DNA of 64,000 nucleotides from an uncultured Clostridia bacterium (GTDB lineage: Bacteria; Bacillota; Clostridia; Lachnospirales; Lachnospiraceae). A model generated the notes under the pieces. The model did no database searches. It saw nothing but the letters and a program-made list of their open reading frames with translations, and was not told the origin of the DNA. This document shows positions 1,915 to 53,506 of this stretch, piece by piece. The DNA lies in the NCBI GenBank assembly GCA_947089095.1, contig CAMUJB010000007.1:43787-107786 (forward strand). The letters run 5' to 3'. How positions within the stretch are numbered: position 1 is the first letter of the stretch; every line of letters starts with the position of its first letter. The position numbers and the translations under genes were made by a program.

Positions 1915-2094
1915 TAAAAACAAAAAACACATAACAAACACGGAACACTGGAATAAATAAATAAAATAAAAGAAAAGAAAAAAAATCATAAACCAACCAA
2001 TAAAAAAATATATCCAGCAAACACCCAAAATCAATCTAATTTCATAACAAAAAACAACAAAAGGTAAAAACAAAACATAAATTGTGCCATAATA

Positions 2095-2338
2095 CAGCCA
2101 GAGTGCATTAGGGGTACACGGTGACTTCGTAGGAAAGTTAGAGGCTCTTAGACTTCTGTCGATCCATTAGGATTTTTTGCCATTCTCGAATGGCAAAAAA
2201 AGGGGTGTGTTTAGCCCGCTGTACGGGCGAATTGCACCCCGATCCGTCCGGTTAGATACACCCAACACCAGAAGTCTTAGAGCCTCTAACTTTCCTACGA
2301 AGTCACCGTGTACCCCTAATGCACTCTGGCGTCCCCTC
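2095..2338 (+). repeat. Fam-A palindromic structured element, copy 1 (core variant A; arms perfectly complementary)
   Basis: Termini cagccagag...ctctggcgtcc. ~60-bp inverted arms (gtgacttcgtaggaaagttagaggctcttagacttctg / rc). Conserved core ggatttt-P1-aaaaa-ggggtgtgtttagcc-cgctgtacgggc-gaattgc-acccc-gatccgtccgg. Nine copies in the window. Confidence 0.85.
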
Positions 2339-8709: not shown

Positions 8710-8829
8710 GTCAAATCGGATATTCGCAATCCGCTTCGCTGCTTGCTCATAACCTCATCAAGGAAGTCCCAACCCACCGCTTTCGCCTTGGCGGCTTAGA
8801 AACGGGGGACTTCCTTGATGAGGTTAAAT
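8710..8829 (+). repeat. Fam-B hairpin repeat, standard form
   Basis: ggtcaaatcggatattcgcaatccgcttcgctgcttgctcataacctcatcaaggaagtccc...gggggacttccttgatgaggttaaat. Confidence 0.75.
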
Positions 8830-8857
8830 AATAAAACAAAAACGGAGAAAAGAAAAT

Positions 8858-11411: not shown

Positions 11412-11532
11412 AGTCAAATCGGATATTCGCAATCCGCTTTGCTACTTGCTCATAACCTCATCAAGGAAGTCCCAACCCACCGCTTTCGCCTTGGCGGCTT
11501 AGAAGCGGGGAACTTCCTTGATAAGGTTAAAA
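11412..11532 (+). repeat. Fam-B hairpin repeat, standard form; its terminal ggttaaaag supplies the TAA stop of the DUF445 gene
   Basis: Sequence identity to the other Fam-B copies. CDS 11527..12429 stop codon (rc of tta at 11527-11529) lies inside the element end. Confidence 0.75.
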
Positions 11533-12429
11533 GCATAGATTGATACATCCGATAATTAGTCCAATTAAAGCCCCCAAATTGATAATGGAATGAAGCTCCT
11601 TTTCCATAACGGAAAGGGTCAGTTTTTCAATCTCTTTTACATCCATAGTACGAATTTTTTCCTCGACAATCTGACTAATCGGAATATATTCCATTATAGT
11701 GCCAAAATAGTCTGTAATAATCCGCCGATAGAGAGATAACATCAGCTGTTCTAAATTTTCTTCTGTAACAGGCAGACCTTCCACTGTTTCGGCAATGGTT
11801 TTATCTGCAAAGCGATAGACTTCTTCTTTTGTTTTTTCCTCTATTAATGCTTTGCCATGTTCTTCTAGATATTGATTGAGTTCTTTTCTTATCATCTGTT
11901 CCATTCCGGCAATCATCTTATCATTTAACATCATAGCAAGTAAGGTGCCCTGTGTTTTCTGCCGAATTACTTCTGCTACCTTTTCTCCTACAATACTTCC
12001 AAAGTCCATCTCCGTTACTTTGTGATAGAGAAGCTCTCCTACGGTTTCTATCGTTTTTGTCAAAAACTGATCTACGGTTTCTTCTGAAGTCTGTTTTTCG
12101 GCAAATTCTTTTATTGTATTCTGATTGGTAATTCCTTTTTGATAAAAAACCGAAATTTGATTTTTTACTGTTTCCTGCATCTGCTCTGATAATAAAAGCT
12201 GCTCAAAATCTTTCTTTGTCAATAATACTTCTCCTACTGCTTCTCCCACTGCTTTTGCCAGCCGTTCCCTTCCTTTTGGAATAATTCCGGGAGTAAAGGG
12301 AAGCTGCCACTTTCCAAGATAGACTGGATACAACGGTCGAAACAGCATCTTTACTGCAATATAATTGGTAAAATATCCAATTGCAGCCCCTACCACAGGT
12401 CCTGCAAGCATTGTAATATCAAAAGCCAT
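11527..12429 (-). CDS. DUF445-family membrane-associated protein
   Basis: N-terminus MAFDITMLAGPVVGAAIGYFTNYIAVKMLFRP matches the DUF445/YheB-type family. Confidence 0.6.
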   Translation of the reverse strand: MAFDITMLAGPVVGAAIGYFTNYIAVKMLFRPLYPVYLGKWQLPFTPGIIPKGRERLAKAVGEAVGEVLLTKKDFEQLLLSEQMQETVKNQISVFYQKGITNQNTIKEFAEKQTSEETVDQFLTKTIETVGELLYHKVTEMDFGSIVGEKVAEVIRQKTQGTLLAMMLNDKMIAGMEQMIRKELNQYLEEHGKALIEEKTKEEVYRFADKTIAETVEGLPVTEENLEQLMLSLYRRIITDYFGTIMEYIPISQIVEEKIRTMDVKEIEKLTLSVMEKELHSIINLGALIGLIIGCINLCF

Positions 12430-21438: not shown

Positions 21439-21565
21439 CCATATCCCTTCCTTTCTTTTGTTCTTCACAACTCGACTACTCCCACTAAAACCAAACATAT
21501 CTCCTACCCAGTATACCATAAAAATCCTAATTTTAAATCCTCCAAAACATATCAAATTTTATCCC

Positions 21566-21805
21566 AAAGGGGACGCCAGAGAGTATTAAAAGCACGCTGT
21601 TCCGCTCTCCAGAAAACAGAAACTCTAAGACTTCTGAATTTCAATGCATCCAACCGGACGGACCGGCACGCAATTCGCCTCTGCAGGAGGCTAAACACGT
21701 GCCTTTTTCGGGCACAAGTGCCCGAAAATCCTACAGAATCGACAGAAGTCTAAGAGTTTCTAGTTTTCCTCCGAAGTCACAGCGTACTTTTAATACTCTC
21801 TGGCT
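21566..21805 (-). repeat. Fam-A palindromic structured element, copy 2 (core variant B, reverse orientation)
   Basis: rc of core ggattttcgggcacttgtgcccgaaaaaggcacgtgtttagcctcctgcagaggcgaattgcgtgccggtccgtccgg. Termini ggggacgccagag...ctctggcta. Confidence 0.85.
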
Positions 21806-22120
21806 ATATAATTCCACAATTTACGTTTCTTTTCTTTCGCGGTTGTATGGTTCTTCAATTTGTGTTTTTTCTCCTTGGTGGTTGTATGATTCTGCAATTT
21901 ACGTTTCTTCCCCTTTATGGTTATATGACTCTGCAATTTATGTTTCTCCTTAGCGGTTGTATGATTCTGCAATTTACATTTCTTCTCTTTCATGGTTGTA
22001 TAATTCTGCAATTTATGTTTCTTCCCCTTTGTGATTATATGACTCTGCAATTTATATTTCTTCTTGGCGGTTGTATGATTCCGCAATTTACGTTTCTTTT
22101 TCTTTGCAGATGTATAATTT
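21806..22120. repeat. Tandem-repeat array 1 (about 9 units of alternating 39 and 36 bp; unit ggttgtatgattctgcaatttacgtttcttc...)
   Basis: Direct repeats read from the sequence. Starts at the ctctggc terminus of Fam-A copy 2. No interspersed unique spacers. Confidence 0.85.
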
Positions 22121-22237
22121 TATTTTGATAAACTCTATTCCAATAAAAGTATCTATAATAAACTCTAATCAGCTAAATCCAAAAGAAAAATTATACTAAC
22201 AGCAAAGATAACCTCTGCTATTGGCAAAAAATAAAAA

Positions 22238-22510
22238 CATAAATTGCGGGAATACCAGCCAGAGGGAGAAAGTAAAATGGTATCGCAGTGACTTCGGAGG
22301 AAAGTTAGAAGGTCTTAGACTTCTGTCGATTTTGTAGGATTTTCGGGCACTTGTGCCCGAAAAAGGCACGTGTTTAGCCTCCTGCAGAGGCGAATTGCGT
22401 GCCGGTCCGTCCGGTTGGATACACCGAAATTCAGAAGTCTTAGACCTTCTTACTTTCCGTAGAGCGGAACTGCGATACCATTTTACTTTCTCCCTCTGGC
22501 GTCCTCCCCC
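22238..22510 (+). repeat. Fam-A palindromic structured element, copy 3 (core variant B, forward)
   Basis: cataaattgcgggaataccagccagag...core B...ctctggcgtcctccccc. Confidence 0.85.
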
Positions 22511-22532
22511 ACCATCCTCCCCCACCATCTGC

Positions 22533-23507
22533 TCAATACTCCCACTCCAACCTCTTATCCTCAAAATACCGCAAAATCCAATAAGGATTCACACTCTGCT
22601 CCACATAATGCTCCGTCCGAATATAAATCCCAAGGTGCAGATGCACCGCAAAATTCCCCACTGTCCCTTCCACCTTACTATATCCGCTGTCCCCCATAAA
22701 TCCAATTAATTCTCCTGCACAAACCCTATCCCCTTCCTTCCATTCTTTTGCATAACGATAGAGATGTGCATAATAAAAATATCCCCCATTCGGGCTGCGA
22801 ATCCCAATCCGATATCCGCCCTTTTCTAACCATCCAATCCGTTCCACCACTCCATCTGTCATACTGACAATCGGAAAATACCCCCGCTCATTATTCCCTG
22901 CCATAATATCACACCCCTCATGCACATGAGAAGCATCCCGATAAATCCGCTCACTTCCCCACCCATCGCTATAGTAAACTTCCGCTGCCCGCAGATTCCT
23001 GCTCTTAGGCACTGGAAAATAAACAATATCCGAAATCACCGCCCGATAAGCCGCCAGCAGCTTTTCATACTCCTCCTGCTGCCGTTCCTCATACCACGCT
23101 TTACAATCCTGAAAATAGGTAACCTCTCGCATCGAATCCGGCATAGCAGCAAATCGATCCAACTGAAACTCACTAATCCCCATCCACACCGCCAAAACCT
23201 CTTCAATAGGAATCTGATGCACCCTTTGAAATTCCTTTAAATCCGTAATTGCTTCTTCGCTCATCTGCATTTCCCGAAAATTCTCCGTCTCATAAGCACA
23301 GGCAGGAAGCCGGCATACTCCTCCACGAACCAGCAAATGATCCAATAAAATCACATTAAAAACAGCAAAAAAAATCAATACTCCAAAGAACCAATATAAA
23401 CCCGTCCGATTTTTCTGCCCTTTATACCTTCTTACCGAATAAGCCTGCACCCCTATTCCTCCCCATCTATCAAAAGCTCTGTCTAAAGCATTGTATTCTG
23501 CCCCCAA
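22533..23507 (-). CDS. M23-family peptidoglycan metalloendopeptidase
   Basis: HEGCDIMA...YAHL...GDSGYS..VHLHLGIYI (HxxxD / HxH LytM motifs). N-terminal TM anchor. Confidence 0.8.
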   Translation of the reverse strand: MGAEYNALDRAFDRWGGIGVQAYSVRRYKGQKNRTGLYWFFGVLIFFAVFNVILLDHLLVRGGVCRLPACAYETENFREMQMSEEAITDLKEFQRVHQIPIEEVLAVWMGISEFQLDRFAAMPDSMREVTYFQDCKAWYEERQQEEYEKLLAAYRAVISDIVYFPVPKSRNLRAAEVYYSDGWGSERIYRDASHVHEGCDIMAGNNERGYFPIVSMTDGVVERIGWLEKGGYRIGIRSPNGGYFYYAHLYRYAKEWKEGDRVCAGELIGFMGDSGYSKVEGTVGNFAVHLHLGIYIRTEHYVEQSVNPYWILRYFEDKRLEWEY

Positions 23508-29220: not shown

Positions 29221-30984
29221 ATGAGAAAACATACGCTAGAAACCCGCTGGACACAGCAAATTACAGAAACAAATGCCTGGCAGGAATACCCTCGCCCTAC
29301 TATGGTTCGCTCCTCTTATATAAACCTAAATGGTTACTGGGATTATAAAATCAGCAGACGTCACACCTTTCCCTCCGCCTATAGCGGAAAAATCCTAGTT
29401 CCATTCTCTCCCGAATCCAAACTATCCGGTGTACAGCGTCAGTTAAAACCAAATGAATATCTCTGGTACCACAGAACCCTTACCCCTTTATCATTTTCCA
29501 AACAAGAACGCCTCTATCTGCACTTTGGTGCAGTAGACCAATCCTGCACCGTTTACCTCAACCGCCGGAAAGTCGGTTCCCATCAGGGAGGCTATCTTCC
29601 TTTTTCGATTGACATTACGGAAGCGATGCGGCACGCTTCACCCAAAAAGTCTCTAGACTTATTCGTATGTGTAACCGATCCCAGTGACACCTCCTATCAC
29701 AGCCGGGGCAAACAAAAGCTCCGCAACGGCGGAATGTTTTATACTGCACAAAGCGGAATCTGGCAGACCGTCTGGATGGAACTTGTACCGGAAAATTTTA
29801 TCCGCTATGTCAAATTCACTCCTGACTACGATAAAAAAGAAGTAAAAGTAAAGATTGCTACAGAAAAAACCTGTCCTGCTGTATTACATCTAAAATTAGA
29901 ATCCGGCGATCTCTCTTATTCTTTTACAAGCAACCAAAGCTTTCGGATTCCGATTCGGGAATTTCACGCATGGAGTCCAGAGCATCCCTATCTGTACCAA
30001 GTAAAAATCACTACAAAGACAGACTGTATCTCCAGTTACTTTGCCCTAAGAAAATGTGAAATTCAAACCGATTCAAACGGAATCCGAAAAATCTTTCTTA
30101 ATAATCGCCCCTATCCGCAGATTGGCATCCTCGATCAGGGATACTGGCCAGACGGACTCTATACCCCGCCCTGTGAAGAAGCGATTTTATTTGATCTTTT
30201 GGCAATAAAAAAATTGGGATTTAATATGATCCGCAAACATGTAAAAATCGAATCGGAACGCTGGTACTATCACTGTGATCGGCTTGGTATTCTAGTCTGG
30301 CAGGATATGGTAAATGGCGGCTCACGCTACCACCGCTGGTTTGTTACTTACTTTGCCACTCTCTTTAACTGCCTGAATATCCGAATATTTGATCGTCCTC
30401 ATGCTTTATTTTCACGCAGACAAAAAGAAAGCCGAACCGAATGGACCAAAGAAGTCGTATCCACTGTCCGCACCTTATATCCTCATCCCTGCATTGTATG
30501 CTGGGTTCCATTTAACGAAGGATGGGGACAGTTTCGTGCACTTTCAGCAGCAGAATTGATTCGCAGTCTAGACAAAGAGCGGCTGATCGATCACGCCAGC
30601 GGCTGGTTTGATCAGGGAGGCGGCGATATAAAAAGTATTCACTACTATTTCTTCTCCCTGATTCTAAAACCGGAACGGCGTGCACTCGCTCTGACCGAAT
30701 TCGGCGGCTACACTTGGCATGTAAAAAAACACAGCTATTCCTCCAAAAAATTTGGCTATCGAACTTTTTACAGCAAAAATTCCCTGTCAAAAGGCTATGC
30801 CAAATTATTAGAAGACCTGATTTTTCCTGCATTTCAAAACGGACTTTCCGCCTCCGTCTATACCCAGCTTTCCGATGTAGAAGAGGAACTAAACGGCATC
30901 TTTACCTATGACAGAAAAATTCTGAAATTAGACAAAAAAACGGTTACCGAATGGAACCAAAAAATAAAAAATCTAATCGAGTAG
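29221..30984 (+). CDS. Glycoside hydrolase family 2-like protein
   Basis: 587 aa. N-terminal sugar-binding-like region and TIM-barrel segment (WQDMVNGG). Family assignment from overall similarity only. The last codons ATC GAG TAG lie inside a Fam-D repeat. Confidence 0.55.
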   Translation: MRKHTLETRWTQQITETNAWQEYPRPTMVRSSYINLNGYWDYKISRRHTFPSAYSGKILVPFSPESKLSGVQRQLKPNEYLWYHRTLTPLSFSKQERLYLHFGAVDQSCTVYLNRRKVGSHQGGYLPFSIDITEAMRHASPKKSLDLFVCVTDPSDTSYHSRGKQKLRNGGMFYTAQSGIWQTVWMELVPENFIRYVKFTPDYDKKEVKVKIATEKTCPAVLHLKLESGDLSYSFTSNQSFRIPIREFHAWSPEHPYLYQVKITTKTDCISSYFALRKCEIQTDSNGIRKIFLNNRPYPQIGILDQGYWPDGLYTPPCEEAILFDLLAIKKLGFNMIRKHVKIESERWYYHCDRLGILVWQDMVNGGSRYHRWFVTYFATLFNCLNIRIFDRPHALFSRRQKESRTEWTKEVVSTVRTLYPHPCIVCWVPFNEGWGQFRALSAAELIRSLDKERLIDHASGWFDQGGGDIKSIHYYFFSLILKPERRALALTEFGGYTWHVKKHSYSSKKFGYRTFYSKNSLSKGYAKLLEDLIFPAFQNGLSASVYTQLSDVEEELNGIFTYDRKILKLDKKTVTEWNQKIKNLIE

Positions 30985-31068
30985 GAAAGGTTACTTTCCC
31001 TACTCGCTGTCTCAGGCGTCCGTCAGCTCCGCTGACCTATTTCATTTAAACATTCATGTGCATAAAAA
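30975..31068 (+). repeat. Fam-D repeat, copy a (aatcgagtagg-hairpin-...gctgac...cataaaaa)
   Basis: Copies at 37750, 40424 (deletion form) and 49331. Contains hairpin gagtaggaaa..tttccctactc. Confidence 0.7.
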
Positions 31069-33162: not shown

Positions 33163-33428
33163 CAAGGGGACGCCAGAGTGCTTTAGGGAGACGTGTTCCG
33201 CTCTCCAGAAAGCAGAAGTTCTAAGACTTCTGAATTTCCGTGCATCCCGCCGGACGGACCGGCACGCAATTCGCCTCTGCAGGAGGCTAAACACGTGCCT
33301 TTTTCGGGCACAAGTGCCCGAAAATCCTACAGAATCGACAGAAGTCTAAGAACTTCTAGCTTTCCTCCGAAGTCACAACGTCTCCCTAAAGCACTCTGGC
33401 TGTATTGTCTCACAATTTACGTTTCCTT
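33163..33428 (-). repeat. Fam-A palindromic structured element, copy 4 (variant B, reverse)
   Basis: ggggacgccagagtg...rc core B...ctctggctgtattgtctcacaatttacgtttc. Confidence 0.85.
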
Positions 33429-33545
33429 TCTCGATCCTCTATGAATACAGGAATCAACTTTTATGTTTTCTTTTCTCGATCCTCTATGGATACAGGAATC
33501 AATTTCTATGTTTTCCTTTTTCGAACCTCCATGGATACAGGAATC
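33429..33545. repeat. Tandem-repeat array 2 (about 2.7 units of 45 bp; tcgatcctctatggatacaggaatcaatttctatgttttcctttt)
   Basis: Direct repeats lying between the head-to-head Fam-A copies 4 and 5. Confidence 0.8.
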
Positions 33546-33555
33546 AAATAAAAAC

Positions 33556-33833
33556 TTATCGGCAGGAAAAAACAGCCAGAGTGGGGAAAAGATTCCTTGC
33601 CACTGTGACTTCGGAGAAAAGTTAGAAAGTCTTATGCTTTTGTCGATCCACTAGGATTTTTTGCCATTCTCGAATGGCAAAAAAAGGGGTGTGTTTAGCC
33701 CGCTGTACGGGCGAATTGCACCCCGATCCGTCCGGCTGGATGTATCTACATTCAAAAGCATTAGACTTTCTTACTTTTTGGAGAGCGGAACAGTGGCAAG
33801 GAATCTTTTCCCCACTCTAGCGTCCCCCCGCCC
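33556..33833 (+). repeat. Fam-A palindromic structured element, copy 5 (variant A, forward)
   Basis: cttatcggcaggaaaaaacagccagag...core A...ctctagcgtccccccgccc. Confidence 0.85.
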
Positions 33834-33871
33834 ACACTATAACACCAAAACCTTTACACCCTATCCCCCTT

Positions 33872-35170
33872 CTATAAAATATCAATATATTCCCCAGATA
33901 AAGCCTTATTCATACTGCGAACGGCACAAAATTTTCCGCACATCGAACAACTGTCCTCCTGCTCCGGTTTTCGCTCTTCCCGAATCTGCTTCGCCGTTTT
34001 TGGATCTATCGCACACTCCCACTGCTTTTCCCAATCCAATTCCCGCCGTGCCTGAGCCATTGCATCATCTAATTCCCTAGCCCCTCGAATCCCCTTTGCA
34101 ATATCAGCCGCATGAGCCGCAATTCGGGAAGCTATTATCCCCTGCCGCACATCCTCTAAATTCGGCAAAGCCAAATGCTCCGCCGGAGTTACATAGCACA
34201 AAAAAGAAGCTCCTGCCGCTGCCGCAATCGCTCCTCCAATCGCAGCCGTAATATGATCATACCCAGGTGCAATATCGGTTACCAAAGGTCCCAACACATA
34301 AAAAGGTGCCCCCATACAGATTGTCTGCTGGATCTTCATATTCGCTGCAATTTGATCCATCGGCATATGCCCAGGACCTTCCACCATTACCTGCACATCT
34401 CTCTCCCAAGCACGTTTTGTCAATTCTCCCAGCCGCACCAATTCTTCTATCTGACAGACATCCGAAGCATCCGCCAAACATCCCGGACGACAGGCATCTC
34501 CAAGAGAGATCGTAACATCATATTCCCGGCAAATTTCCAAAATTTCATCATAATACTGATAAAACGGATTTTCCTCTCCTGTCATACACATCCAGGCAAA
34601 TACCAAAGACCCTCCCCGTGATACAATATTCATTTTCCGCTTCTGCGTTCGAATCTGTTCGATTGTCTTTCTGGTAATCCCACAGTGCAAAGTTACAAAA
34701 TCTACTCCATCTTCTGCATGAAGCCGAATCACATCTAAAAAGTCCTGTGCACAAAGTGTCGCTAAATCCCGCTGATAGTGAATCACCGCATCATAAACCG
34801 GTACGGTTCCAATCATTGCCGGACATTCTGCCGTTAATTTTCTCCGAAACGGCTGTGTATCTCCATGGGAAGATAAATCCATAATCGAGTGAGCACCCAT
34901 TTCCACTGCTTTTTGTACCTTTTTCATCTCTGCTTCCTTATCTTTACAATCTTTCGAGACTCCCAGATTGACATTGATCTTTGTGCGAAGCATCGATCCA
35001 ATCCCTTCTGCATCTAAACAGGCATGACTTTTATTTGCACAGATCACAACTTTTCCCTCCGCTACAAGCGGCATCAGTTCCTCTGCTGTCATTTGTTCTT
35101 TAACCGCAACCGCTTTTAATTGTTCTGTAAGAATCCCTTTCCGTGCAGCTTCCATCTGTGTAGCATACAT
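33872..35170 (-). CDS. thiC: Phosphomethylpyrimidine synthase
   Basis: 432 aa; radical-SAM ThiC C-terminal CSMCGKFC cluster motif; high similarity to ThiC throughout. Confidence 0.9.
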
Positions 35171-37588: not shown

Positions 37589-37749
37589 AGCCGTCCCTTT
37601 CCCCGTCATACCAAACCTGCCATCCCTTCCGCCTGTCACAATGGAACCTCTACCCTCCTTCTACAATCAAACAAGAAAAATTTATCTTCCCCTGCTCATC
37701 TACCAAAATCTGTCAGCTTACTGAACGATTCCTTTGAACACCCATATAC

Positions 37750-37845
37750 CATCGAGTAGGAAAATTTCCTCTCCTTACTCGCTGCACCAAGCGTCCATCA
37801 GCTCCGCTAACATCATTCCCTTGGACGCCCGCATACATAAAAAAA
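37750..37845 (+). repeat. Fam-D repeat, copy b (inside the thi leader)
   Basis: atcgagtaggaaaatttcctctccttactcgctg...cagctccgctaac...gcatacataaaaaaa. Confidence 0.7.
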
Positions 37846-37980
37846 TGCAGACACGCAAAAAGCATATCTGCACCGTTCTTCCGCAAATGATGTCCCTACG
37901 TTGGCATTATCCAAATCAGGTTTTAAGGGTAAAAGCCTCACATGCTTACTCTCAGCCTATTCTAATAAGCTCCCCATATA
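37838..37980 (-). promoter_or_regulatory. TPP (THI-box) riboswitch with terminator-type expression platform, upstream of thiM-E-D-C
   Basis: Minus-strand aptamer GGGGAGC..GGCUGAGAG..ACCCUUAAAACCUGAUUUGGAUAAUGCCAACGUAGGGA matches the THI-element consensus. It is followed by the hairpin ugcagauaugcuuuuugcgugucugca + U7. Confidence 0.85.
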
Positions 37981-38019
37981 TTTCTATTATAACCTCTTTT
38001 TAAAAAAACACAATCCCCT

Positions 38020-38347
38020 TTTTCCAACAAAATCCTTTAACCCCTCCCAACACCATACCTCATTTGAACCTCTATTTTTTACTGAAATTATTCGAACCAA
38101 GTCCAATCAAATCCAACACCATACCTCATTTGAACTCCTATCTTTTACTGAAATTGGTCCAACCAAGTCCAATCAAATCCAACACCATACCTCATTTGAA
38201 CTCCTATCTTTTACTGAAATTGGTCCAACCAAGTCCAATCAAATCCAACACCATACCTCATTTGAACTCCTATCTTTTACTGAAATTGGTCCAACCAAGT
38301 CCAATCAAATCCAACATCGTACCTCATTTAAGCCTCTATCTTTTACT
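38020..38347. repeat. Tandem-repeat array 3 (about 4.7 units of 66 bp; caacaccatacctcatttgaactcctatcttttactgaaattggtccaaccaagtccaatcaaatc)
   Basis: Direct repeats abutting the 5' terminus of Fam-A copy 6. Confidence 0.85.
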
Positions 38348-38630
38348 CTATCGGCAGGATAAATCAGCCAGAACAAAGAAGCAATTTCTTGCTGACGTGA
38401 CTTCGGAGAAAAGTTAGAAAGTCTTACGCTTTTGTCGATCCACTAGGATTTTTTGCCATTCCCGAATGGCAAAAAAAGGGGTGTGTTTAGCCCGCTGCAC
38501 GGGCGAATTGCACCCCGGTCCGTCCGGCTGGATGCATCAAAATTCAAAAGCGTTAGACTTTCTTACTTTTCGGAGAGCGGAACGTCAGCAAGAAATTGCT
38601 TCTTTGTTCTAGCGTCCCCCACCCCCCATC
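38348..38630 (+). repeat. Fam-A palindromic structured element, copy 6 (variant A, forward)
   Basis: ctatcggcaggataaatcagccagaac...core A...ttctagcgtcccccacccccc. Confidence 0.85.
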
Positions 38631-48897: not shown

Positions 48898-49170
48898 AGT
48901 GGGGGGAGGACGCCAGAGTATGGCATTGCAGTACTGTTTCGCTCTACAGAAAGTAAGAAGCTCTAAGACTTCTGAATTTAGATGTATCCAACCGGACGGA
49001 CCGGGGTGCAATTCGCCCGTGCTGCGGGCTAAACACACCCCTTTTTTTGCCATTCAAGAATGGCAAAAAATCCTAATGAATCGACAGAAGTCTAAAAGCT
49101 TCTAACTTTCCTCCGAAGTCACAGTACTGCAATGCCATACTCTGGCTGTCTTTTTCCACAATATAGGTAT
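48898..49170 (-). repeat. Fam-A palindromic structured element, copy 8 (variant A, reverse)
   Basis: ggggggaggacgccagag...rc core A (P1 gccattcttgaatggc)...ctctggctgtctttttccacaatataggtattc. Confidence 0.85.
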
Positions 49171-49240: not shown

Positions 49241-49330
49241 ACTTAATAAAATAAAAGGCAGTTATCTTATCTTTTGATAACTGCCCAAACTAATGGTGAA
49301 TAAAATTTGTTATATTCTTTCTATTTTTAT

Positions 49331-49437
49331 AATCGAGTAGGGAAGGCTGCCTCCTCTACTCGCCGTGCTAAATGTCTGTCAGTTCTGCTGACATCGTTCC
49401 TTGAGATATCTGTGTACATAAAAAAATTCCCTGTAAA
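49331..49437 (+). repeat. Fam-D repeat, copy d, immediately beside tRNA-Leu
   Basis: aatcgagtagggaaggctgcctcctctactcgccg...tctgctgacatcg...gtacataaaaaaa. Confidence 0.7.
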
Positions 49438-49470
49438 CATTTCGTCTACAGAGAACGCCCCTGCCAAGAG

Positions 49471-49553
49471 TGCCGCAGGCCGGACTTGAACCGGCACGAG
49501 GTCGCCCCCGCTAGATTTTGAGTCTAGTGCGTCTGCCATTCCGCCACTGCGGC
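49471..49553 (-). tRNA. tRNA-Leu (anticodon CAA), class II with long variable arm
   Basis: Manual cloverleaf: acceptor GCCGCAG/CUGCGGC, anticodon stem CUAGA/UCUAG, loop CUCAAAA, T-arm GCCGG-UUCAAGU-CCGGC, discriminator A. No encoded CCA. Confidence 0.9.
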
Positions 49554-53130: not shown

Positions 53131-53405
53131 ATCTATCGCCAGAAAGAACCAGCTGGAGTTTGGAAGCCCTTTCTCTATGCAGTGACTTCGGAGAAAAGTT
53201 AGAAAGTCTTATGCCTCTGTCGATCTCCTAGGATTTTTGCCATCTTCTGATGGCAAAAAAGGGGTGTGTTTAGCCCGCTGCACGGGCGAATTGCACCCCG
53301 GTCCGTCCGGTTGGATATATTTTCATTCAGAGGCATTAGACTTTCTTACTTTTCGGAGAGCGGAACAGCATAGAGAAAGGGCTTCCAAACTCCAGCGTCC
53401 TCTAC
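53131..53405 (+). repeat. Fam-A palindromic structured element, copy 9 (variant A with P1 gccatc-ttct-gatggc)
   Basis: aatctatcgccagaaagaaccagctggag...core A...actccagcgtcctctacacc. Confidence 0.85.
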
Positions 53406-53506
53406 ACCATCCCCCCAGCTTTTCCATCCTAATATCCACACACCATCCCCCCCAGCTTTCCCATCTCAGTATCCACACCATTCCCCTCAACCTTCACTTT
53501 TCTCTA

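Follow-up and report, generated by a model that had tools for sequence, protein, structure and literature searches.

What kind of molecule is under selection at positions 2161–2262 of a 64-kb stretch of DNA from an uncultured Lachnospiraceae bacterium (contig CAMUJB010000007.1, positions 43,787 to 107,786; hereafter, the window), where three short stems differ in sequence between repeat copies and nevertheless stay paired? The first-pass annotation of this segment had read the pattern as selection on a folded single strand, for example a small RNA, a ribozyme-like motif or a single-stranded DNA (ssDNA) hairpin of the IS200/IS605 kind. We found that the segment belongs to an element that is multi-copy, structurally constrained, strand-asymmetric, intergenic, and gained or lost between species. 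On balance, we favour the reading that it forms the core of a single copy of an intergenic TwoAYGGAY-class element (Rfam RF01731) that is present many times and whose sense-strand fold is selected, most likely as RNA; we hold this reading with reasonable rather than high confidence.

The sequence of 2161–2262 (plus strand) was re-read directly and is as described, and alignment, folding and per-pair counts resolved its parts. Hairpin P1 pairs 2175–2184 with 2189–2198 around a CUCG loop, the outer part of P2 pairs 2202–2209 with 2233–2240, and the inner part of P2 pairs 2214–2218 with 2224–2228 around a CUGUA loop; the conserved junction strands are UAGGAUUUU and (A/G)UCCGUCCGGYUGGAU. In an alignment of the nine copies of the window, variant A comprised copies 1 and 5–9 and variant B copies 2–4, with a third P1 in copy 9, and the reported alternation of the P2 outer (GGGGTG/CACCCC versus GGCACG/CGTGCC) and inner stems (GCCCG/CGGGC versus GCCTC/GAGGC) was reproduced. 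The P1 variants stand as well, except that the strings as first written overlapped by 2 nt; the true hairpins are TTTTGCCATT-CTCG-AATGGCAAAA and CGGGCA-CTTG-TGCCCG. The segments that had been called invariant and single-stranded are indeed conserved (90–100% in 109 copies), but part of them is probably paired, with TG/TG wobbles extending P2 and GGA pairing with UCC to close the junction.

The segment is the tip of a branched hairpin of about 240 nt with conserved flanks and not a free-standing motif, and each copy of the element (234–254 nt) forms one such hairpin. Copy 1, a short form of 239 nt, occupies 2096–2334 on the plus strand (found with nhmmer; 239 bits with covariance model R1), and its basal stem pairs 2097–2158 with 2269–2330. 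The folding free energies of the window copies ranged from −131 to −168 kcal/mol, and that of copy 1 was −167.6 kcal/mol (z = −20 versus shuffles). The architecture consists of an outer stem of about 35 bp, hypervariable in sequence and fully paired; a symmetric GGA × GGA internal loop; a conserved inner stem of about 24 bp with a fixed asymmetric bulge adjoining it; and, at the tip, P1 and P2 joined by a short GGA/UCC helix. The consensus has no extra hairpins and no 3' pseudoknot.

To count and compare copies, we used the window and about 0.75 Mb of loci from one conspecific metagenome-assembled genome (MAG). A pattern scan of one genome per species gave at least 120 loci; among the matches listed, nearly all came from MGBC128194, an uncultured Lachnospiraceae MAG of a mouse gut catalogue, and one further species (locus L043) was represented. 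The window and the MGBC128194 contigs are about 99% identical, and the MAG contigs break inside element copies. In total, 181 distinct element places were found, the genome total being at least 170, at a density of about one copy per 4–7 kb of sampled DNA. Within the window, repeat search, nhmmer and the covariance model all identified exactly nine copies, every one homologous to the others (nhmmer E-values of 1e-67 to 1e-79; covariance model scores of 213–294 bits). In the metagenomes scanned the core pattern is rare, with 22 loci of which only a few contigs of the ERZ7796xx series are real. A phage origin was considered and rejected, as the core pattern had no match in viral contigs.

In a structure-blind MAFFT alignment of 109 full copies, 98.7% of the pair cells were standard, compared to 86.2% after shuffling and at most 47% when partners were slid against each other (at most 48% over both alignments), and the covariation score was 0.371 against 0.138 in shuffles, none of 500 shuffles scoring as high. 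When 111 copies were aligned to a covariance model that had been trained on 26 gapless copies, 98.0% of the cells were paired and two-sided changes occurred at 61 of 91 pairs; the copies are paralogues of common ancestry, so that these cell counts overstate the number of independent events. The basal stem as a whole (about 59 bp) holds most of the covariation, with 45 of 59 pairs covarying outside the segment first described: 31 of 35 in the outer stem, with up to four pair types per column, and 14 of 24 in the inner stem. In the core, covariation was found at 8 of 11 pairs of P1, 4 of 8 of P2 outer and 2 of 5 of P2 inner. Almost all pairs that vary do so on both strands of the stem and thereby stay complementary. 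The GGA/UCC junction helix is near-invariant, and its pairing is supported by one GAA/UUC double mutant (L108:6357-6605).

The first-pass annotation had named one outcome that would undo its reading, namely that variants A and B were just two clonal lineages. This is not the case, because the P1, P2-outer and P2-inner types combine freely across copies and further compensatory variants occur (GGCGTG/CACGCC, GGGATG/CATCCC, GGTACG/CGTACC, GGTGCG/CGCACC, GCCCC/GGGGC, GCCTG/CAGGC, GTCATC/GATGAC, CAGGCAC/GTGCCTG and CGGACAC/GTGTCCG). Heavy covariation in all the named helices, the mixing of modules and the strand asymmetry presented below support selection on a folded single strand. Three further pairings were tried and rejected: a hairpin P0 (AUCC-ACUA-GGAU) from single-sequence folds, whose 5' side is not conserved; a hairpin P3 (GUCC-GGYU-GGAU) from the same source, with zero covariation and 8–10% of its cells unpaired; and a pseudoknot of junction UCCGG with CCGGA in the 3' arm, where the partner varies freely. 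Outer stems that act as guides or derive from flanking DNA were likewise rejected, since the 5' variable arms of 111 copies, compared with about 0.82 Mb, had only chance matches of 14–16 nt outside elements.

Two copies depart from this shape. In copy 1 and at L056:3315-3554 the 3' arm has become an exact complement of the 5' arm, and the asymmetric loops and bulges of the family are erased. Copy 1 is thus a 61-bp stem with one bulge, atypical in its arms and typical in its core, and its 3' arm (2269–2330) matches the reverse complement of the 5'-arm profile in nhmmer and in the alignments. From the sequence, this looks like a signature of template switching at the DNA level in a quasi-palindrome. 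Such arm-to-arm copying can mimic compensation, and the earlier statement that a double-stranded DNA palindrome needs no such compensation was too strong. Taken to its end, copying of this kind would make the element a selfish quasi-palindrome without any selected fold, its complementarity arising purely from template switching or arm conversion, as the two converted copies would suggest. We consider this very improbable. Conversion would erase asymmetric features, yet 109 of 111 copies keep the GGA × GGA loop, the single C bulge and GAGCGGAAC; the unpaired core segments are conserved at 90–100%; and the asymmetry between G·U and A·C persists in copies of both orientations. The conserved asymmetric features argue for a strand-specific folded molecule over a mere palindrome.

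Of the two strands, the one that Rfam models gives the more stable fold, by about 9 kcal/mol. Sense and complement strands differ in their mismatches, with 775 versus 417 G·U and 61 versus 125 A·C, and at pairs 48-216 and 49-215 the states are GC, GU and AU, with no more than one non-standard cell each and virtually no AC. The GC skew of the window is −0.16 to −0.47 throughout, and nearly all genes lie on the minus strand. This strand bias is strong enough to affect mismatch statistics, so a control was needed and was applied. Among minority states at pairs dominated by Watson–Crick combinations, G·U:A·C stood at 95:8 where the sense strand of the copy is the coding, G-rich strand and at 65:50 where the copy is antisense. 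Mutational bias alone would turn the ratio around from one orientation class to the other. A sense-strand preference of about 4-fold fits the data, together with an orientation effect of about 3-fold, which could reflect either mutation bias or use of the antisense hairpin.

The element is of a kind already known, which the first-pass annotation, covering the core alone, did not recognise. RF01731 (gathering threshold, 43 bits) matches copy 8 (70.5 bits at 48942–49117) and copy 7 (63.7 bits at 43039–43213) across the full model (positions 1–168), and also 6 of about 35 copies in 18 MAG loci, with 55.5–78.5 bits. The matching copies include variant B (both copies of L028) and the second species, L043; eight copies in all are above the threshold at 55–78 bits, covering both core variants, and Rfam's model, filters included, picks up only about one copy in five. 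Judged by these matches, the element is of the TwoAYGGAY class, and this lineage is a distinct variant of it.

The 2010 description of TwoAYGGAY drew on human gut, Clostridiales and gamma-proteobacteria and presented it as a probable RNA whose function was unknown (PMC2864571), and a role as CsrA sponge has been proposed from the AYGGAY in both loops (PMC4333381). According to a preprint of September 2026 (bioRxiv 10.64898/2026.09.22.753630), the Pseudomonas members are multi-copy, form divergent doublets in 68% of cases at a median distance of 249 bp, and are flanked by repeat arrays, while Bacillota members have an elongated basal stem, and mobile-element-like expansion is suggested. Like TwoAYGGAY, the present element carries two neighbouring hairpins on a shared elongated basal stem with tandem G·A-type loops, and it occurs where the family is known, in Clostridiales and the gut. 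Insofar as that preprint text allows comparison, its basal stem of about 59 bp lacks the extension of the Pseudomonadota type, as in Bacillota members, and the high copy number, the divergent doublets, the 5'-side repeat arrays and the 3'-side repeats recall Pseudomonas. Differences are also evident. Here an internal UUUA/GAAU loop interrupts P2, sequence in the outer stem is hypervariable, and the copies come in two lengths whose orientation biases are opposite; the upstream repeat units measure 13–114 nt and are not 5–6-mers, and the doublets are divergent in 44 of 44 cases, compared with 68% in Pseudomonas.

High copy number raises the question of how the copies spread. We compared orthologous loci of relatives, with 91–95% amino-acid identity in NAPRTase and about 76–85% nucleotide identity in flanking genes. 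In L121, a block of about 630 nt, comprising the C-rich tail, copy 6 and its upstream 66-nt array, is absent between the NAPRTase stop codon and the thi riboswitch promoter, with no target-site duplication visible between the filled and the empty site in this single comparison. Copy 7 is absent in L122, as is an adjacent vault-like gene. An element lies directly after thiC in L121, like copy 5 in the window, with a different outer stem and with the contig ending inside it; the covariance model search of the orthologous loci in L121–L126 gave zero full copies and one truncated copy at a contig end. Some copies degenerate, as shown by a decayed relic at L097:4963-5029 that retains only the core, P1 plus P2, with broken P2 inner pairs and no basal stem.

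Several side observations concern these loci. The thiamine pyrophosphate (TPP) riboswitch of the window (37876–37986, minus strand, 67.7 bits) lies ahead of the thiM-thiE-thiD-thiC operon, and the block with copy 6 was gained, or lost in the relatives, between the stop codon of the upstream gene and the promoter of this riboswitch. L121, without copy 6, has a solitary GGACGCCAGA at L121:3018-3032, downstream of the thi riboswitch terminator; it reads as the reverse complement of the element's 3'-end motif and could be a remnant or a recognition site. The vault-like gene (40475–42913, minus strand) encodes an 812-aa protein that combines Major Vault Protein shoulder, Vault_3 and SPFH/Band 7 domains, an unusual set in a bacterium; L125 has the gene and L122 lacks it, a PilM/FtsA-like gene there abutting the NAPRTase gene directly.

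Such gains and losses would fit a non-autonomous DNA transposon of the REPIN or MITE (miniature inverted-repeat transposable element) type, its fold serving as an ssDNA hairpin for a transposase encoded elsewhere (an IS200/IS605 Y1 enzyme or RAYT) and any RNA being incidental. High copy number, presence or absence at orthologous sites, strictly divergent doublets, assemblies that break at copies, conserved terminal motifs (AGCCAGAG...CTCTGGCGTCC) outside the variable stem and the mobile-element-like expansion suggested in the preprint all speak for this alternative. We regard it as unlikely, though deserving serious weight, on the following grounds. The outer stem, where terminal inverted repeats would be expected, is the least conserved part; the junction of copy 6 has no target-site duplication; and the core is kept in more than 100 copies whose variable positions are close to saturation, which looks like old copies under purifying selection and no recent burst. 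IS200/IS605 ends consist of two small subterminal hairpins and not one branched hairpin of 240 nt. Finally, no transposase, integrase or reverse transcriptase was found among the scanned open reading frames (ORFs) of the 64-kb window, the rest of the genome being outside the scan. This Pfam scan covered 48 window ORFs of at least 120 aa, including all minus-strand ones bar one that overlaps copy 3; they match housekeeping families only or no family, and the scan for Y1, TnpA and RAYT was limited to the window.

Classical MITEs have conserved terminal inverted repeats and target-site duplications, whereas the termini here pair but vary (the outer stem at nearly all positions), the one comparison of copy 6 with L121 shows no duplication, and compensatory change is seen in every helix. 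In the flank listing, the two subtypes had no conserved tetranucleotide target in common. With IS200/IS605 ends and attC sites the element shares conservation of structure over sequence, and its fixed extrahelical features could mark one strand; however, there is no adjacent TnpA, TnpB or integrase and there are no cassettes, and the size and branched core differ. As a single branched hairpin of 234–254 nt, it does not have the structure of IS200/IS605 or REPIN elements. Nor does it resemble an integron attC, since multi-gene operons lie between copies and no integrase occurs among the scanned window ORFs. Nothing favoured the earlier suggestions of a ribozyme or an IS200/IS605 end, and no transposase is encoded in the window. 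Like REP, BIME and REPIN sequences (PMC2817692), the copies are high-copy extragenic palindromes between convergent or co-directional genes, in inverted pairs, and possible terminators or mRNA stabilisers; unlike REPs, which are 20–40 nt, sequence-conserved and simple stems (PMC2817692), they are branched, are 240 nt long and combine a conserved core with an outer stem that is free in sequence, and the DNA examined showed no RAYT. In P. fluorescens SBW25, according to the same preprint (bioRxiv 10.64898/2026.09.22.753630), REP arrays adjoin TwoAYGGAY copies. The Correia, ERIC, BOX and RUP elements are similar in being intergenic long hairpins of 100–300 nt whose presence varies by strain and which may act as promoters or terminators affecting neighbouring genes.

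The copies fall into two subtypes, a short form of 234–241 nt and a long form of 247–254 nt, which differ in flanks and in orientation. In the short form, the 5' flank is AGAAACGTAAATTGTGGAACAATAC, similar to an extended −10 element (TRTG-N-hexamer) with its end 2 nt ahead of the repeat element itself; in copy 1, the conserved motif is AAACATAAATTGTGCCATAATAC at 2071–2095 (plus strand), as seen in the flank listing and the logo, and the 3' flank of the short form is TCTTTGGGA... The 5' flank of the long form is ..TATCGGCAGGAAAAAAC and its 3' flank is a C-rich tail. Relative to gene direction, the short form is co-oriented in 31 cases and antisense in 14, and the long form is antisense in 51 and co-oriented in 14. 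Long-form copies sit 25–107 nt past a stop codon, and 36 of 55 have a run of A at the 5' edge, corresponding to a hairpin plus U run in the gene direction, while the distance from a short copy to the next start codon ranges from 16 to about 500 nt. A canonical sigma-70 promoter or a simple terminator at the flanks was considered and rejected, neither being above chance. Separately, the 3' flanks of copies 1, 3 and 5–9 (e.g. 22502–22529 and 53404–53478) are strongly C-rich and G-poor, sometimes tandem (13-nt or 37-nt units); read on the gene strand, they would place G runs between stop codon and hairpin, and could be a Rho-loading site or a G-quadruplex.

Divergence was the rule without exception among neighbours less than 2 kb apart (44 of 44 pairs, none convergent or tandem), the gap between them having a median of about 215 nt, and the commonest doublet (14 of 23) combined a long antisense with a short co-oriented copy. 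Tandem arrays with periods of 13–114 nt occurred in 39% of the 300-nt windows upstream of copies, 10% of those downstream and 3% of random ones. Upstream of copies 2 and 5, the array units repeat the conserved 5'-flank motif of the adjacent copy.

This arrangement could mean that the element acts in cis on the transcripts of the adjoining operons, in the manner of REP/BIME, ERIC or Correia sequences, as a terminator, insulator or 3'-end stabiliser and, in its short form, as a promoter donor, with no role as a trans RNA. The position of antisense long copies just past stop codons, their hairpin plus U run in 36 of 55 cases, the mostly co-oriented short form with its −10-like motif upstream of the next gene and the typical doublet would all follow from such a role, and the weak G·U:A·C asymmetry of antisense copies would be expected if both strands matter. 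Against it, a terminator or stabiliser needs no two-hairpin core, GGA × GGA loop or invariant junction strands; these features persist between species and the general architecture between phyla; co-orientation is seen in 14 long copies and antisense orientation in 14 short ones; and the distance between short copies and the next start codon varies. The terminator scan called none of the hairpins, although its definition cannot score branched hairpins. We therefore consider a purely cis-acting element somewhat less probable still than the transposon.

In the window, the nine copies are spaced 4.6–20 kb apart between multi-gene housekeeping operons, and the window genes are, by Pfam, ordinary chromosomal ones or of no family (e.g. 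polA, hisS, ruvAB, recU, thiC/D/E/M, PBP and malQ). Copy 2 (21571–21805, minus strand; short form, variant B) is co-oriented with the genes, its end lying 16 nt upstream of an ORF that starts at 21555. Its divergent partner is copy 3 (22257–22504, plus strand; variant B; nhmmer and covariance model), the 3' end of which is 29 nt from the stop codon of ORF 22533–23507 (minus strand). Between them, upstream of copy 2, Tandem Repeats Finder (TRF) and the sequence itself revealed an array of about eight 39-nt units (21817–22119, minus strand), each repeating the 5'-flank motif GAAACGTAAATTG.... The second doublet consists of copy 4 (33168–33401, minus strand; short form, variant B, co-oriented with the genes; nhmmer and covariance model) and copy 5 (33574–33825, plus strand; long form of 252 nt, variant A), 47 nt from the thiC stop codon. 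Upstream of copy 5 lies a 45-nt tandem array (33422–33547, plus strand; TRF and flank listing) with the long-form 5'-flank motif CCTCTATGGAT..GAATCAAC in its unit. Copy 6 (38366–38617, plus strand; long form; covariance model) is 33 nt from the NAPRTase stop codon and is preceded by 4.6 units of a 66-nt array (38047–38347, plus strand; TRF). Copy 7 (43004–43252, plus strand) is a long form and copy 8 (48908–49147, minus strand) a short form; copy 9 (53151–53400, plus strand; alignment and covariance model), a long form, carries the third P1 variant, GCCATC/GATGGC, and is followed on its 3' side by a 37-nt C-rich tandem repeat (53404–53478; TRF). The ORFs that overlap copies (22196–22564, 33661–34080 and 37901–38362) cross repeats and hairpins and were taken as spurious.

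The window contains two more repeat families. The second family (1750–1917, 8710–8832, 11413–11535, 40196–40363 and 63853–63919) is a long GC-rich hairpin, AAGGAAGTCCCCCGC...GCGGGGGACTTCCTT, followed by GATGAGGTTAAAA, and has no Rfam match. In its copy at 1859–1917 the loop segment is reverse-complemented relative to the other copies while the flank orientation is kept, which suggests a hairpin-mediated inversion. A repeat of this family abuts the 5' edge of a TwoAYGGAY-type copy in MAG loci L007, L053 and L114. The third family, of about 95 nt (30974–31068, 37749–37843 and 49330–49424), shows on the minus strand a GTCAGC-GGA-GCTGAC hairpin with a GGA loop, then GGACGCC and a 12-bp hairpin, CGAGTAGGGAAAG...CTTTCCTACTCG; a GCGTCC/GGACGC motif is common to this repeat and to the 3' end of the main element, CTCTGGCGTCC. 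A tRNA-Leu(CAA) gene at 49470–49553 (minus strand) lies between copy 8 and an FtsX-like permease gene and adjoins a copy of the 95-nt repeat.

Returning to the TwoAYGGAY reading, we propose that the selected unit would be the fold of the strand modelled by Rfam. That the folded strand is RNA seems most likely from the precedent of the family and from the promoter-like flank, the latter not confirmed by a two-hexamer scan. In short-form copies, the −10-like motif would place the start of transcription at the foot of the stem. The long basal duplex is best understood as a context-independent stem that serves the processing or stability of the core, perhaps as a substrate of RNase III type; being free in sequence and strict in pairing, it suits a stem that forms or stabilises ends in any transcriptional context. 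The two-hairpin core with its junction would carry a trans function. In antisense long-form copies just past a stop codon, the reverse-complement hairpin with its U run could terminate the upstream gene, and short-form copies may supply a promoter. Spread would proceed by a mobile-element-like process using a factor encoded elsewhere, and part of the compensation may be mechanical, through template switching between arms at the DNA level.

A number of observations weigh against this proposal. The asymmetry of minority states is almost gone in antisense copies. Hairpins of ssDNA tolerate G·T wobbles too, so that the strand asymmetry cannot tell RNA from ssDNA, a point that equally serves the transposon alternative. 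RF01731 reports none of copies 1, 4, 5 and 6, even in short searches at E-values up to 1–10; the model's sequence filters are probably the reason, as these copies are clear homologues of copies 7 and 8, and the membership of copy 1 thus rests on that homology. The strict TRTG-N-nAnWAT pattern fits only 18 of 44 short copies, with one copy reading TGTGGTATAAT; at the 5' flanks, the two-hexamer sigma-70 scan did no better than chance; and in the flank listing no promoter could be recognised for long-form copies. The common ancestry of the copies lowers the number of independent pair changes, and it is demanding for selection, acting copy by copy, to maintain the pairing of about 60 bp in more than 170 copies, which argues for some mechanical homogenisation between the arms. 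The P1 and P2 loops, moreover, contain neither AYGGAY nor any GGA, unlike those of TwoAYGGAY: none occurred among the core haplotypes of 66 copies and none was visible in the 109-copy alignment. P1 loops are variable (CUCG, CCCG, CUUG, UUCU and others) and P2 loops are CUGYA-like, with GGA confined to the junction strands (UAGGAU and UUGGAU) and the internal loop of the stem. Because the loops have no GGA, a role as CsrA sponge is unlikely in this lineage.

One may go further and picture the element as an autonomous non-coding mobile unit, in which a structured-RNA gene, with its own promoter-like flank and end-forming stem, spreads as divergent pairs between operons while its fold is under purifying selection in each of hundreds of copies. 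We offer this as a doubtful, speculative extension, to which we give a lower probability than to either the transposon or the purely cis-acting element. The outer duplex, hypervariable yet perfectly paired, could then be a processing substrate or even a specificity determinant. If this were true, the ancestral function of TwoAYGGAY would lie not in CsrA titration but in the shared architecture of stem and junction, which might recruit a protein that also mediates copying.

For the species itself, the repeats of the element fragment metagenome assemblies, and Rfam annotates a minority of the copies. For the family, TwoAYGGAY has been an orphan RNA for 16 years, and the sole functional proposal, sequestering of CsrA/Rsm proteins, rests on the GGA loops. 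Here the scaffold is under strong constraint in at least 170 copies without GGA in the loops, which argues either that the conserved function lies in the scaffold and not in the loops, or that it has diverged. The dense covariation within one genome, the absolute rule of divergent doublets, the subtypes tied to orientation and the conversion of arms would make it testable, in a gut Firmicute, whether TwoAYGGAY is a mobile element, an RNA gene or both.

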